DNA from: Escherichia coli
Lineage (GTDB): Bacteria > Pseudomonadota > Gammaproteobacteria > Enterobacterales > Enterobacteriaceae
Direction: 5' to 3' (one strand)
Length of the DNA: 64,000 nt
Assembly: GCF_024223415.1 (NCBI RefSeq)
Contig: NZ_CP100500.1
Notes under the pieces: generated by a model
The model's input: only the letters and a program-made list of their open reading frames with translations
What the model was told of the DNA's origin: nothing
The model's database searches: none
Shown: piece after piece, positions 3,280 through 8,938 of the stretch
How the letters are laid out: every line of letters starts with the position of its first letter
Numbering within the stretch: the first letter of the stretch is position 1
Position numbers and translations under genes: made by a program

Positions 3280-3789
3280 ATGGCGACGCTGACAGAAGAT
3301 GATGTGCTTGAGCAACTGGATGCACAGGACAATTTATTTTCATTTATGAAAACTGCGCATTCTATTTTGCTCCAGGGGATACGCCAGTTTCTGCCGTCGC
3401 TGTTTGTCGATAACGATGAAGAGATCGTCGAATATGCAGTGAAGCCGTTACTCGCCCAAAGCGGCCCGCTTGACGATATTGATGTCGCACTGCGTTTGAT
3501 TTATGCGCTGGGGAAAATGGATAAATGGCTGTACGCCGATATCACGCATTTTTCCCTGTTCTGGCATTACCTGAACGAACAGGATGAAGCGCCCGGATTT
3601 GCCGATGACATGACCTGGGATTTTATCAGCAACGTCAATAGCATAACCTGCAATGCGACGCTCTATGACGCGTTGAAAGCGATGAAGTTCGCCGATTTCG
3701 CCGTCTGGTCAGAGGCGCGTTTTAGCGGAATGGTCAAAACGGCGCTGACGCTGGCAGTAACGACCACCTTAAAGGAATTAACGCCGTGA
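3280..3789 (+). CDS. yggD: MtlR-like small protein (reported as fumarase E)
   Basis: 169-aa ORF; synteny. Confidence 0.8.
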   Translation: MATLTEDDVLEQLDAQDNLFSFMKTAHSILLQGIRQFLPSLFVDNDEEIVEYAVKPLLAQSGPLDDIDVALRLIYALGKMDKWLYADITHFSLFWHYLNEQDEAPGFADDMTWDFISNVNSITCNATLYDALKAMKFADFAVWSEARFSGMVKTALTLAVTTTLKELTP

Positions 3790-4499
3790 AAATTGAATTA
3801 ACGGTGAATGGGCTGAACGTGCAAGCGCAGTACCATGATGAAGAGATAGAACGCGTGCATAAACCGTTGCTGCGTATGCTGGCGGCCTTACAGACGGTAA
3901 ATCCGCAGCGCCGAACCGTGGTTTTTCTTTGCGCTCCGCCGGGGACGGGGAAATCTACCCTAACCACCTTCTGGGAATACCTCGCGCAACAAGACCCGGA
4001 ACTGCCCGCTATTCAGACGCTGCCGATGGATGGTTTTCACCATTACAATAGCTGGCTGGATGCGCATCAATTGCGCCCCTTCAAAGGCGCACCAGATACA
4101 TTCGATGTGGCGAAACTGGCGGAAAATCTGCGCCAGGTAGTGGAAGGGGATTGTACGTGGCCGCAATACGATCGACAAAAGCATGATCCGGTTGAAGATG
4201 CGTTGCACGTTACCGCACCACTCGTCATCGTCGAAGGAAACTGGTTGTTGCTGGACGACGAGAAGTGGTGCCAGCTTGCGCAATTTTGTGATTTCTCGAT
4301 CTTTATCAACGCGCCAGCTACTGCGTTGCGGGAACGACTGGTAGGGCGCAAGCTGGCGGGAGGGGTATCGCTGGCAGATGCAGAAGCTTTTTATGACCGT
4401 ACCGACGGGCCGAATGTTCGCCGGGTGCTGGAAGAGAGTCTGCCTGCAAATTTGACTTTAATGATGACCGCTACGGGTGAATATCGTCTGGTGGATTAA
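3786..4499 (+). CDS. yggC: P-loop nucleoside/pantothenate-kinase-like protein
   Basis: 237-aa ORF with Walker A motif PPGTGKST; overlaps yggD stop. Confidence 0.85.
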   Translation: MKIELTVNGLNVQAQYHDEEIERVHKPLLRMLAALQTVNPQRRTVVFLCAPPGTGKSTLTTFWEYLAQQDPELPAIQTLPMDGFHHYNSWLDAHQLRPFKGAPDTFDVAKLAENLRQVVEGDCTWPQYDRQKHDPVEDALHVTAPLVIVEGNWLLLDDEKWCQLAQFCDFSIFINAPATALRERLVGRKLAGGVSLADAEAFYDRTDGPNVRRVLEESLPANLTLMMTATGEYRLVD

Positions 4500-5148
4500 C
4501 GTTCCTGATTAGACCATCTTCCAGTCGCACCACACGAGAGAAATGACGCCGGGTAAATGCGGCGTCATGACTGATTGCTACGACGCTCGTGCCTCGCTGG
4601 CGGCACTTCTCCAGCCAGCTTTCAAACACGCTCAACCAATTTTCGTCAAAATCCCGACTCGGCTCGTCCAGCAGCAATAGTGGCGGAGAGAGTGCTTCCA
4701 GGCAGGCGACGGCGACCATCCGTCGCTGCGCACTATGCAGATCCAACGGGTGCGCGTTGGCAGTGTCTGCTAACTGACAACATTGCAGGGCAGCATGGGT
4801 ACGTTGAGTGATTTCATCCGCCGGGCATTTTTGCAGTTTCAAACCAAATGCGATCTCGTCAGCGACGGTGCTGTGAAAAAGTTGGTTTTCCGCTTCCTGA
4901 AACAGTACGCCAATCTTTGCCGCGCGCTGGCGGTTTTTCAGGTTTTTCATCGCCTGTTGTTGCAGCATAACCGTACCGGCTGTGGGCGTAAGAAGACCTG
5001 CCATTACTCGTAACAGCGTCGATTTCCCTGCGCCATTGTCGCCGGTCAGCGCCAACCATTCACCTTGTTTGAGTTGCAGAGAAATGTCGCAAAGACAATC
5101 CGTTGCCGCGCCAGGCCAGCGATAAGATATCTGATTTAACGTTAACAT
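4471..5148 (-). CDS. ECF/ABC transporter ATPase, second subunit, degenerate signature motif
   Basis: Walker A GDNGAGKST, Walker B LLLLDEP, H-loop ISHD, but LHSAQRR in place of LSGGQ; ATG at 5148 lies 1 nt upstream of the stop of the preceding ATPase gene (ATGnTAA); 3' end overlaps yggC convergently. Confidence 0.7.
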   Translation of the reverse strand: MLTLNQISYRWPGAATDCLCDISLQLKQGEWLALTGDNGAGKSTLLRVMAGLLTPTAGTVMLQQQAMKNLKNRQRAAKIGVLFQEAENQLFHSTVADEIAFGLKLQKCPADEITQRTHAALQCCQLADTANAHPLDLHSAQRRMVAVACLEALSPPLLLLDEPSRDFDENWLSVFESWLEKCRQRGTSVVAISHDAAFTRRHFSRVVRLEDGLIRNVNPPDDIHP

Positions 5149-5825
5149 AGTGGCTGGAGCGCTCCGTTTTGCAATTGCCACGCTTGCTGGCAGTAGTTCA
5201 GGAAAGGTGTGCGATGACGTTCAAAAAGAATAATCAGCGAACCACGTTCAAACGCCCAGTGTTGTAAGCGCTGCAACAGCATTTCGCTGGCCTGCGGCGT
5301 CAGGCGGCTAAAGGCTTCATCAAGAATTAATAGCTTTGGCTGCATCGCGATGGCGCAGGCGATGACCACGCGCTGTGTCTCTCCACCGGAGAGTGTTGCC
5401 GGGTGACGATGGCGCAACGGCTGGCACTCGGTCAGAGTCAGGGCGGCATCAATCCGAGCCATAATCTCTGCTTCAGCAAGACACAGATTTTCTGGCCCAA
5501 AGGCAACTTCTTCTTCCACGCTAAAGGTACAGCCGGAGAGCTGCAAATAGGGCGATTGCTGGACGAGCTGGATGGTGGCGGATTGTTCATTAAGCGGGAG
5601 ATGCCCAATGGGCGTACCGAGGAGCGTCCCCGTGCCTGTTATCTCTCCTGGCAGAAAGTCCGGATACCAGCCCGCCATCAGCTGTGCCAGCGTACTTTTG
5701 CCACTGCCGTTGTCACCAAAGATGGCGACCATCCCCGGTTTGACATAGTGAAAGTCATAACAGAACGGAGGATGTGTTGAGTGTGTCGGGCAATAACGGA
5801 ACTGTTCTAACGTAACCATATCCAC
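5142..5825 (-). CDS. ECF/ABC transporter ATPase, first subunit
   Basis: Walker A GDNGSGKST, canonical signature LSGGETQR, Walker B LLILDEA. Confidence 0.75.
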   Translation of the reverse strand: MDMVTLEQFRYCPTHSTHPPFCYDFHYVKPGMVAIFGDNGSGKSTLAQLMAGWYPDFLPGEITGTGTLLGTPIGHLPLNEQSATIQLVQQSPYLQLSGCTFSVEEEVAFGPENLCLAEAEIMARIDAALTLTECQPLRHRHPATLSGGETQRVVIACAIAMQPKLLILDEAFSRLTPQASEMLLQRLQHWAFERGSLIILFERHRTPFLNYCQQAWQLQNGALQPLC

Positions 5826-6514
5826 GCTCCGAATTCTGTCAGCATCAGCAAGATCATGGTGTAACGCGCTACGCGTTGTAGGGTGCTATCGGCTGGTGCC
5901 CACAACGTTGTTCGTCGATTGTGGATCCGAAATGCCCGCATATCCAGCGCCGCACCACGGACAGCAAGATCGTTTAGCGCATTGTGTGTTAGCGGAATAA
6001 TTAACGCGGGCATCGCACGTAAACGCTGATACCAGCCCTCATCCAGCGGCACGCCGCGGGCACGCTGCGCTTCATGAATAATCGCTAATTGCCGTTTTAA
6101 CTGCTCAACGACCAATAACGGCCCGGCAAACAGATAAGCGACGCCTGGCGGCAGGCGAGAAGCAAACAGAGCGCGGATAAAACATTGCACGGGGACGTAC
6201 TGCATCCACAACTGTGAGGTTGAAACAATCGCCAGAATCCGCAACCAGAGCGTAATAGCATGCGTCCAACGCTCCGGCGAACGCGGCGTGCCGCTTAGCC
6301 ATTCTGTTAGCCAGCCACCGTGTACCAGCCACAGCCCGGCTCCCAGCGAGAACATCAGCCAGACGACATATTTTGCCCGCCGCCGCGTGGCCTTTAGCGC
6401 AATAAGGCAGAAAAAGGTCGCCGCGCTATAGATCGGCAAAATGGTCTGCGCGGGCAGGATAAGCGTGGTGCAGGCCGCCAATGCCCACAGTGTTAATGAG
6501 GTAAATGGATGCAT
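5807..6514 (-). CDS. ECF transporter transmembrane T component (CbiQ/EcfT-like)
   Basis: Hydrophobic 235-aa protein with Ala-Arg-Gly motif (EAQRARGVP); start ATG directly abuts stop of upstream S gene (TAAATG). Confidence 0.65.
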   Translation of the reverse strand: MHPFTSLTLWALAACTTLILPAQTILPIYSAATFFCLIALKATRRRAKYVVWLMFSLGAGLWLVHGGWLTEWLSGTPRSPERWTHAITLWLRILAIVSTSQLWMQYVPVQCFIRALFASRLPPGVAYLFAGPLLVVEQLKRQLAIIHEAQRARGVPLDEGWYQRLRAMPALIIPLTHNALNDLAVRGAALDMRAFRIHNRRTTLWAPADSTLQRVARYTMILLMLTEFGAWIWLR

Positions 6515-7093
6515 TTAGCGCACGGCAGCCATTGCCGGAAAATGGCGCGTGGTGCGAATCGGCAGCTGGCGCAGTAAAAGCCAGACAATCACCGCTGTAA
6601 GAGTTTTATCGACCAGGTTCGCGCCTATCACCGTAATCGCCACCGACTCCACCAGGTTTTGCCCCATCGAGTGCATCCAGGCAACGAACAAATCGGCTCC
6701 GCTACCGGTGACACCGCCGAACAGCGCAGTACGCAGCGGTACAGCGACGACCGTTACCGCAAGCGTAATAATCACGCCGCTGACAACGACTTTTGGCAGG
6801 GTGCGGAACCAACCCGCTCGCGCCAGCCAACCGGCGACCAGGCCGATGACCATCGCCACGGGCGCAAATGCGGCGGCGATCGGGTCGGTCAGCAATCCCC
6901 AGAGTAAATTGGTCAGTAAACCGGTCAGCATCCCGATCACCGGACCAAGCAGTACCGCGCTAATAAGTGTGCCGATGGAGTCGAGAAATATAGGTAATTT
7001 GACCATGCTGGCCAGTTGCCCGCCGATCATATTGATGGCGATAGATATAACGATTAACACCAGCGCCTGACTGGAAAAGTGGCTACGCGCCAT
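6515..7093 (-). CDS. small integral membrane protein, candidate ECF substrate-specific S component
   Basis: About 192 aa of mostly hydrophobic helices; preferred start ATG 7093 with GAGAGG Shine-Dalgarno upstream (track ORF extends to 7192); position immediately upstream of T and A genes. Confidence 0.55.
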   Translation of the reverse strand: MARSHFSSQALVLIVISIAINMIGGQLASMVKLPIFLDSIGTLISAVLLGPVIGMLTGLLTNLLWGLLTDPIAAAFAPVAMVIGLVAGWLARAGWFRTLPKVVVSGVIITLAVTVVAVPLRTALFGGVTGSGADLFVAWMHSMGQNLVESVAITVIGANLVDKTLTAVIVWLLLRQLPIRTTRHFPAMAAVR

Positions 7094-7115
7094 AAGAAAA
7101 CCTCTCTGAAAGTAG

Positions 7116-7547
7116 TTATTTAACGGGGGAAATATGCAACTCGTCGTAACCAGAAAGCGCGCAAGGTTGGCGGCTAAACGCCAGTTCCTCAAGGCTACCG
7201 ATCACCAGTTCAAGCGTGGTCCGCACGGTACAGCCGGGCATCATATGACCGCCAAGCATCGTGCCGTGTGGATCGGAAACGCAGAGATGAAGATGCTCAC
7301 CACTCTGTTCCAACGTGCCGTTTAGTGAGATCACTTCGAATGTACCGTTCAGGAGCGTGGTGCCTTCTTGCCCGGCATAGCGCAAGGCGATGTCAGTCAG
7401 GCTACCGGTACAGCCTGCAATCCAGGCGGCATGAAGTTGCTGCTGCTGTGCAAAAGCGTGTAGCTGGGAAAAAACTTCCTGCCCGGGGAGGAGGCGCAGT
7501 GCGTAAAAGCGTGCGGAGGAAGAATATGGGTAGGGCAATGTCATCAT
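7116..7547 (-). CDS. small soluble protein, possibly DUF296/PPC-domain family
   Basis: 143-aa ORF, first gene of the minus-strand operon; family assignment from memory of sequence character only. Confidence 0.45.
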   Translation of the reverse strand: MMTLPYPYSSSARFYALRLLPGQEVFSQLHAFAQQQQLHAAWIAGCTGSLTDIALRYAGQEGTTLLNGTFEVISLNGTLEQSGEHLHLCVSDPHGTMLGGHMMPGCTVRTTLELVIGSLEELAFSRQPCALSGYDELHISPVK

Positions 7548-7918
7548 TGGAGTACTCCGAAACTCGGACGTATTGCGGATAATATCGACGCTGCATCAGT
7601 CATATTCTGATATAAGTCAGGGTTTGTGACGGCACAACGAAAAGATTTTGCTACGCTTATTCGTGATTCTGCAAAGTGGAATAAATTCCACAGGGGCGGG
7701 GCTGAAAACGTGACGTAAGTCAGATAATTGTCTTCTTTGACTGGACAATCATTCCTTTTATTCCACGTTTCGCTTATCCTAGCTGAAGCGTTTCAGTCGA
7801 TTAAATGTTCGACAATTAACCAATCAGTCGCAGTTTGCGACAGGTAAGGTTTCCCCGGACGATTTGCTGGATTACTCTGTCTGGCAAATTTGCTCAGGGA
7901 AAACCTTGCAGGAGATCT

Positions 7919-8938
7919 ATGACCGTACGCGTAGCGATAAATGGCTTCGGTCGCATCGGGCGTAATGTGGTTCGTGCTTTGTATGAATCCGGACGCCGGG
8001 CGGAAATTACCGTGGTGGCAATCAACGAACTGGCGGATGCTGCGGGCATGGCGCATTTGTTGAAATATGACACCAGCCATGGCCGTTTTGCATGGGAAGT
8101 ACGACAGGAACGCGATCAACTTTTTGTTGGTGATGACGCCATCCGCGTATTGCATGAACGTTCACTGCAATCGCTCCCCTGGCGTGAACTTGGCGTTGAT
8201 GTAGTCCTCGACTGCACCGGCGTATATGGCTCCCGCGAGCATGGCGAAGCGCATATTGCCGCCGGGGCCAAAAAAGTGCTCTTTTCACATCCTGGCAGTA
8301 ACGATCTCGACGCGACCGTTGTTTACGGCGTCAATCAGGATCAACTTCGTGCGGAACACCGCATCGTTTCTAACGCTTCCTGTACCACGAATTGCATAAT
8401 TCCCGTCATCAAATTGTTAGATGATGCGTACGGTATTGAGTCCGGCACTGTGACCACAATTCACTCCGCCATGCACGATCAACAGGTTATTGATGCATAC
8501 CATCCTGACCTGCGTCGCACCCGGGCAGCCAGCCAGTCGATCATTCCGGTCGATACTAAACTGGCCGCCGGTATCACACGATTTTTTCCGCAATTTAACG
8601 ATCGCTTTGAAGCGATTGCGGTACGTGTGCCAACCATAAATGTGACGGCAATCGATTTAAGCGTGACGGTGAAGAAACCTGTAAAAGCCAATGAAGTCAA
8701 CCTGTTGCTGCAAAAAGCAGCACAAGGTGCATTTCATGGTATAGTTGACTATACGGAATTGCCGTTGGTCTCTGTAGATTTTAACCACGATCCGCACAGT
8801 GCCATTGTCGATGGCACCCAAACCCGGGTCAGTGGCGCACACCTGATCAAAACGTTGGTCTGGTGCGATAACGAATGGGGCTTTGCTAACCGAATGCTCG
8901 ACACGACGTTAGCTATGGCTACTGTTGCTTTCAGGTAA
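7919..8938 (+). CDS. epd: D-erythrose-4-phosphate dehydrogenase
   Basis: Starts [15 protein letters not shown] (GAPDH-family NAD-binding motif), 339 aa; AGGAG Shine-Dalgarno; upstream part of the track ORF rejected. Confidence 0.95.

Follow-up and report, generated by a model that had tools for sequence, protein, structure and literature searches.

A dedicated pair of ECF-type ATPases in an accessory island of Escherichia coli, and their predicted unequal ATP sites

Results and Discussion

The locus and its two ATPase genes

The window analysed here is a stretch of 64,000 nucleotides from the Escherichia coli chromosome (assembly GCF_024223415.1, contig NZ_CP100500.1). Its minus strand carries a cassette of five genes, which encode, in this order, a PCC protein, the S and the T component of an energy-coupling factor (ECF) transporter and two ATP-binding cassette (ABC) ATPases, here called ATPase-1 and, encoded last, ATPase-2 (Table 1). 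Judging from sequence, the system is probably a group I type ECF importer, whose motor would be an obligate heterodimer of ATPase-1 and ATPase-2 with two unequal ATP sites.

Both ATPases match PF00005 ABC_tran (E 1.8e-27 for ATPase-2 and 3.1e-21 for ATPase-1) and show the expected order of Walker A, Q-loop, Walker B and H-loop. The motifs GDNGAGKST, LHSAQRR, LLLLDEP and ISHD, which an initial annotation of the sequence had quoted for ATPase-2, as well as LSGGETQR of ATPase-1, are all present in the minus-strand translation, and the coordinates given for ATPase-2 coincide with those of the RefSeq coding sequence.

Table 1. Features of the ECF cassette and of the island that contains it, in window coordinates.
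Feature	Position	Strand	Remark
Accessory island	4431..7697	.	five-gene ECF cassette; ~3.27 kb at the yggC/epd junction; blastn against K-12
PCC/DUF296 (PF03479) gene	7116..7547	-	first in cassette; RefSeq 'PPC domain-containing DNA-binding protein'
ECF S component	6515..7093	-	CD3073-like substrate-binding membrane subunit; RefSeq 'ECF transporter S component'
ECF T component	5807..6514	-	RefSeq annotation; two Arg-Gly coupling motifs
ATPase-1	5142..5819	-	225 aa; translation; PF00005
ATPase-1 Walker A GDNGSGKST	5691-5717	-	translation
ATPase-1 canonical signature LSGGETQR	5370-5393	-	translation
ATPase-1 Walker B and D-loop LLILDEAFSRLTP	5295-5333	-	catalytic Glu retained, Asp of the D-loop missing
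ATPase-1 H-loop position FERH	5214-5225	-	Arg201 in the switch-His column
ATPase-2	4471..5148	-	225 aa; RefSeq CDS WP_000956883.1 'ABC transporter ATP-binding protein'
ATPase-2 Walker A GDNGAGKST	5017-5043	-	translation
ATPase-2 variant signature LHSAQRR	4720-4740	-	translation
ATPase-2 Walker B LLLLDEP	4660-4680	-	translation
ATPase-2 H-loop ISHD	4564-4575	-	translation

A conserved variant signature in ATPase-2

Between Q-loop and Walker B, ATPase-1 has a canonical LSGGQ-type signature (LSGGE), and ATPase-2 has none. The initial annotation had placed LHSAQRR at the equivalent position, and two alignments bear this out. In a phmmer search of PDB chains, the ATPase-2 stretch LHSAQRRMVAVA...LLLLDEP, which includes hpldLHSAQRRMVAVA, aligns without gaps to LSGGQKQRIAIA...ILLLDEA of ABCB4 and ABCB1. 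In a MAFFT L-INS-i alignment of 292 ECF-type ATPase domains, L137 of ATPase-2 occupies the column of L143 of ATPase-1 (LSGGE). A canonical LSGGQ elsewhere in the protein would have spoken against the assignment; the whole of ATPase-2 contains no SGG, GGQ or GG.

The pattern LH[S/T/A]AQRR occurs in 116 of the 120 close homologue clusters, the other four giving no match. Ten family sequences, down to 45% identity, yield the consensus HPLDL[HN]x[AG][QE]RRMVA, with the flanks H133 P134 L135 D136 L137 and R142 R143 M144 V145 A146 invariant; only positions 138-141 between them vary (H/N, S/T/A, A/G and Q/E, respectively). The same flanks are kept over Escherichia, Salmonella, Citrobacter, Klebsiella and metagenomic relatives. 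Since it is conserved down to 45% identity, the odd signature is, by this sequence comparison, a conserved variant and does not reflect chance, a sequencing error or decay.

A complementary defect in ATPase-1

ATPase-1 carries a defect of its own, which goes beyond what the initial annotation had observed: Glu-Arg stands in place of the switch histidine, and the D-loop Asp is lost. In the 292-domain alignment, the column of H194 of ATPase-2 contains R201 of ATPase-1, and that of S193 contains E200; the R201/H194 pairing is likewise obtained when phmmer aligns ATPase-1-like N-domains to ATPase-2 without gaps. Throughout the ATPase-1 family (113 full-length sequences plus distant members) the H-loop reads [F/L]-E-R-x, with N, R, H, T or A at x, instead of the usual (S/T)-H-D. 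The family keeps LSGGE[T/S/A]Q[R/K], GxNGSGKST, the Q-loop, the Asp-Glu of Walker B and DEAFSR, and the Walker A Lys and the aromatic residue of the A-loop are conserved in it. Exchanging the switch histidine for Arg is classically inactivating, as in HisP H211R and MalK H192R.

H202 of the E. coli protein was considered as a shifted switch histidine and rejected as a family feature: orthologues have N, R, T or A at this position, and the Glu-Arg before it is invariant.

The D-loop constitutes a second asymmetry, located at the dimer centre. It reads SRLT instead of SALD in ATPase-1, whose family shows DEAFSR-L/I/V-x without the terminal Asp; ATPase-2 (SRDFD) retains the Asp.

Both defects fall into one composite site

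ATP sites of ABC proteins are composite, the signature being supplied in trans by the partner nucleotide-binding domain (NBD), and degenerate sites typically deviate at the Walker B Glu, the H-loop and the trans signature (PMC7756269). The ATPase-2 signature therefore completes the site built on the ATPase-1 P-loop, and the lost switch histidine of ATPase-1 and the LHSAQ of ATPase-2 come together in one and the same composite site. This site, site 1, combines Walker A, Walker B and H-loop of ATPase-1 with the signature of ATPase-2 and is non-consensus on both faces. Site 2 combines GDNGAGKST, the Walker B Asp-Glu, the Q-loop and ISHD of ATPase-2 with LSGGE of ATPase-1 and is fully consensus. 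All non-consensus catalytic residues thus map to a single site.

A 1:1 heterodimer of ATPase-1 and ATPase-2 is supported because both occur naturally joined in one chain. In a library of representatives at 50% identity we find three metagenomic fusions, namely P0122 (503 aa; locus L085, 2681-4192), which joins ATPase-1 to ATPase-2, and P0135 (683 aa; L086, 6001-8052) and P0149 (652 aa; L089, 6001-7959), which have the architecture T/ATPase-1/ATPase-2. The order is always ATPase-1 before ATPase-2; the first ATPase domain has FERH, LERN or LERT, the second LHAGQ or LNSAE. Two non-identical NBDs thus exist both as separate genes and as a single-chain pseudo-heterodimer. The paired loci were taken from contigs that encode homologues and not from a scan of genome contigs with the ATPase-2 family alignment; that scan returned 80 unrelated ABC ATPases of 24-38% identity, driven by the generic Walker A NGAGKSTLL. 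The asymmetric heterodimer with one consensus and one degenerate site, as proposed in the initial annotation, hence stands at the level of sequence, and the switch-His loss in ATPase-1 and the fusions add to it.

One-sided degeneracy in fused relatives

For a wider comparison, Walker A, Walker B Glu, switch His and signature were scored in 142 two-domain proteins. Most of the best 150 representatives are two-domain fusions, for which ECF_ATPase_1/2 and cbiO are the best NCBIfam models. In 99 of the 142 only site 2 (P-loop of the C-domain, signature of the N-domain) is consensus; both sites are consensus in 30, neither in 11, and only site 1 in 2. All C-domains have the switch His (142/142), as against 109 of the N-domains (141/142 and 110/142 in an independent MAFFT alignment). 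The signature is non-canonical in 109 C-domains and in 13 N-domains; at its S-G-G positions the N-terminal, ATPase-1-type domains have S in 142, G in 132 and G in 142 of 142 cases. Of the 33 proteins without the N-domain His, 32 also have a degenerate signature in the C-domain (Fisher p = 0.0008). Some more distant fused relatives lack, in addition, the Walker B Glu or Walker A residues at site 1, as would be expected if one site is under relaxed catalytic constraint.

Proposed mechanism and the points against it

Taken together, the motifs suggest a pump that probably hydrolyses ATP at just one of its two sites. Site 2 would be the catalytic site and would drive the coupling helices of the T component, while site 1 would bind ATP and turn it over slowly or never. 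ATP binding at site 1 is most likely preserved, given the conservation of the Walker A Lys and of the aromatic A-loop residue. Its substitutions are expected to abolish or strongly reduce hydrolysis, by analogy with other ABC proteins. Also by analogy, namely with heterodimeric ABC exporters, whose degenerate sites were proposed to stabilise or tune NBD closure (PMC7756269, PMC3971661), site 1 may have a regulatory use, holding the dimer together or acting as an allosteric site that stabilises or tunes closure.

Several points weigh against a single hydrolytic site. In ATPase-1 the catalytic Glu (DEA) and the Gln of the Q-loop are still there, which would permit some residual hydrolysis at site 1; with the Glu in place the site may be slow rather than dead. 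Loss of the histidine is not always fatal, as MRP1 with some H-loop substitutions (Gln, Asn) still transports (PMC7756269). E. coli ATPase-1 has His202 one residue past the canonical position, and in the phmmer alignment a gap of 2-3 residues brings it opposite the switch His; in this particular protein it might, at a stretch, still act as the switch His. The 142 proteins of the survey were chosen by similarity to ATPase-2, so that the counts are no unbiased census. Finally, the strong conservation of Glu-Arg and His138 could mark a site that has been re-wired and is still active.

Alternative explanations

The last point leads to the alternative that survives best, although we regard it as unlikely. 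Here, Arg201, in the manner of an arginine finger, and His138 in trans (Asn in distant relatives) would replace the switch His and the signature Ser, with the consequence that both sites hydrolyse ATP or that site 1 senses a different ligand. The invariance of Glu-Arg in the ATPase-1 family, the retained catalytic Glu and Walker A and the conservation of His138 and its flanks in ATPase-2 would all be accounted for in this way, and the group II model needs both sites for ATPase activity and transport (PMC10368641). However, it is positions 138-141, those in contact with the gamma-phosphate, that vary most within a stretch that is otherwise invariant, and the additional losses of Walker B Glu and Walker A residues in distant fused relatives concern the very same site. 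A degenerate, at most slowly hydrolysing site 1 is thus the reading we prefer.

That ATPase-2, or even the island as a whole, is decaying and no longer functional, its signature altered by drift, is largely refuted and appears highly improbable. The open reading frame (ORF) is unbroken, and it and the island show 95-100% identity over 3318 complete E. coli genomes, the other catalytic motifs of ATPase-2 are all consensus, the motif flanks are invariant down to 45% identity across the genera named above, and the same signature variant occurs in the fused forms. These observations outweigh the accessory nature of the island, which is missing from K-12 and from 39% of the complete E. coli genomes, and the existence of some truncated ATPase-2 clusters (P0011, P0017).

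We also find it hard to believe that ATPase-1 and ATPase-2 stay apart and form homodimers or serve alternative modules. Many group I ECF systems do have a single ATPase gene and thus a homodimeric motor. In our case, an ATPase-2 homodimer would have two degenerate signatures, and in an ATPase-1 homodimer both sites would lack the switch His. Constant gene order, overlapping genes and the single-chain fusions, with and without T, speak for pairing. The idea that LHSAQ is not the signature position, and its degeneracy an alignment artefact, found no support and is refuted by the gap-free ABCB1/ABCB4 alignment over signature and Walker B, the shared column in the 292-domain alignment and the lack of any SGG or GG in ATPase-2.

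Relation to known systems

Exporters with one degenerate site include TM287/288, TAP1/TAP2, CFTR, MRP1, Pdr5 and MsRv1273c/72c. As in heterodimeric exporters, the E. coli system has two non-identical NBDs whose deviations converge on one site (H-loop and trans signature) while the other is consensus (PMC7756269, PMC3971661), and as in these exporters the degenerate site keeps its Walker A and thus probably binds ATP. The differences concern architecture and the residues affected. The exporters are of type I/II, and their NBDs are joined to transmembrane domains of their own, by fusion or by pairing, whereas the E. coli system is a type III (ECF) importer acting through a T component. In exporters the Walker B catalytic Glu is most often lost; in E. 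coli it is retained, and the deviations are a conserved Arg, with a Glu before it, at the switch-His position and a signature of the form LH[S/T/A][A/G]Q.

Two different ATPases on one T component are likewise found in the group II EcfA/EcfA' systems of L. delbrueckii, L. brevis and T. maritima (5JSZ, 4HUQ, 4HLU). Among PDB chains, the closest solved single-domain relatives of ATPase-2 are 4huq_B (E 4.5e-30) and 5jsz_A (1.1e-27; phmmer). In the L. delbrueckii group II transporter, ATP engages LSGGQ in both subunits, and an E-to-Q exchange in either abolishes ATPase activity and transport (PMC10368641). Neither E. coli ATPase qualifies as a group II EcfA1/EcfA2 equivalog: against TIGR04520 and TIGR04521, with cut-offs of 315 and 330 bits, ATPase-2 scores 145.8 and 149.6 bits and ATPase-1 120.4 and 106.5 bits. 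With their 225 aa, both end at about position 223 of these models of 269 and 279 residues and lack some 45-55 C-terminal residues of group II EcfA/EcfA'.

Fused group I ATPases such as YkoD of YkoEDC belong to the same domain family, ECF_ATPase_1/2 and cbiO being the best NCBIfam models for the fused representatives scored above. The N-to-C polarity of degeneracy is the one seen in the 99 relatives counted above, and P0122 represents a direct fused orthologue; the two domains that are fused in YkoD-type ATPases are separate, overlapping genes in E. coli. The YkoE structure paper models YkoD without discussing ATP-site motifs (PMC5037267).

A partial similarity to the cbiO model connects the E. 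coli ATPases with CbiMNQO. CbiO is encoded by a single gene and forms a homodimer. Against the CbiO subfamily model TIGR01166 the two E. coli proteins score 128.1 and 107.6 bits, well under its cut-off of 211.8, so they are not members. No CbiM or CbiN gene is present in the island according to the ORF list and the RefSeq annotation, and the S component is CD3073-like (PF12822), unlike in CbiMNQO with its CbiM/CbiN. The E. coli W genome paper labels the island 'cobalt transport system cbiQ-O2' (PMC3032704). Given that CbiM and CbiN are missing and that the S component is CD3073-like, albeit below the model cut-off, this label is unsupported, and cobalt is probably an annotation artefact.

Significance

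The principle of one degenerate site is well known from ABC exporters, and the proteins described here are already in the databases under generic names. Our literature search returned no description of a degenerate ATP site in ECF importers; within the library searched, the only work found to mention both is a general review that credits degenerate sites to exporters. For ECF transporters, it is unsettled how many ATP molecules are spent per toppling cycle and whether the two ATPase subunits differ in role. Here, a natural ECF motor appears degenerate on both faces of one site, conserved from E. coli to metagenomic fusions, and its genetically tractable host allows one to ask whether one hydrolytic site suffices and what purpose the second site has. 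The result also corrects the 'cobalt transporter' label.

A more far-reaching proposal combines two parts and is, as a whole, tentative and rather doubtful. Its first part states that one-sided degeneracy of fixed polarity is a rule for paired or fused dedicated ECF ATPases, the odd site being the one on the P-loop of the first, N-terminal ATPase; if true, one hydrolytic site would power a large class of ECF transporters, in contrast to the group II models, which need both sites. The second part holds that in Enterobacteriaceae this odd site has been re-wired into a conserved nucleotide- or ligand-sensing site, formed by the Glu-Arg of ATPase-1 and the His of the ATPase-2 signature, which would gate transport from the cytoplasmic side and might possibly be linked to the co-encoded PCC/DUF296 protein. 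Literature searches on DUF296 together with ECF and on YkoD gave nothing specific.

The remaining genes of the cassette

The S component lies in one operon with T and the ATPases, and no gene for a solute-binding protein is present, which is the arrangement of a group I (dedicated) module. It scores 134.9 bits against NCBIfam NF045596, under the cut-off of 180, and its orthologues carry PF12822; a sequence search of the PDB gave no match for it. The program-made ORF for S (6515-7192, minus strand) begins with the TTG codon at 7192 and reaches into the PCC gene. The RefSeq start at 7093 (MARSHF..., 192 aa) agrees with orthologue lengths of 190-193 aa.

Two Ala/X-Arg-Gly motifs in the coupling helices define ECF T components, and both are found in the T component of the cassette, in QRARGV (6053-6061; ARG = residues 152-154) and in AVRGAAL (5954-5962; VRG = residues 185-187). 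The T component has no NCBIfam match, its PDB sequence search gave chance matches only, and no Pfam match is on record for its orthologues; the T part of the fusion P0135 matches PF02361 CbiQ weakly. On these sequence features we classify it as a very divergent EcfT/CbiQ. The S gene ends one base ahead of the start of T. The ATPase-1 gene shares 13 nt with the T gene and 7 nt with the ATPase-2 gene, overlaps that are consistent with coupled translation.

A close homologue of the PCC protein has been solved (2HX0/2NMU, E 7e-75) under the title 'putative DNA-binding protein'. The PCC-S-T-ATPase-ATPase cassette recurs in unrelated genomic contexts, comprising fusion loci as well as split orthologues of 55-58% identity. 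A PCC gene precedes S, T and the ATPases in L083 (3606-4025), L084 (3387-3815), L085 (919-1383) and L089/L090 (4732-5190 in L089). As a first gene it is thus conserved in distant lineages; the P0135 loci L086-L088 are without it.

TAXI-TRAP transporter genes (NMT1_3 and DctM) adjoin the cassette in two unrelated loci, L084 (7782-10796) and L089 (1889-4735). In L089, the DctM stop and the PCC start overlap by 4 bp, which suggests that the TAXI-TRAP genes and the cassette share one operon there.

The accessory island and its surroundings

The window is E. coli chromosome, and its positions 4300-7700 are 100% identical to strain SCU-316 and others. Homology to K-12 ends at window position 4430 and restarts at 7698 (blastn), and yggC directly adjoins epd in K-12, with about 130 bp in place of the island; the cassette therefore lies on an accessory island. 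It was found in 3330 of 5426 complete E. coli genomes, and homologue clusters carry source names from Salmonella, Citrobacter, Klebsiella, Atlantibacter, Leclercia and others. We thus deal with an uncharacterised importer of the accessory genome; it has PCC/DUF296 as a conserved partner and occurs in about 60% of E. coli as well as in Salmonella, Citrobacter and Klebsiella. An Rfam scan of 3500-8500 (E <= 1) revealed no riboswitch or other RNA, hence no clue to the substrate.

Identity to K-12 amounts to 92% on the yggC side and 99.2% on the epd side of the island, and these unequal values suggest a recombination boundary at the island. The genes yggC (plus strand, 3786-4499) and ATPase-2 are convergent, and their 3' ends overlap by 29 bp (4471-4499). 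The final ~70 bp of yggC are located within the stretch that differs from K-12.

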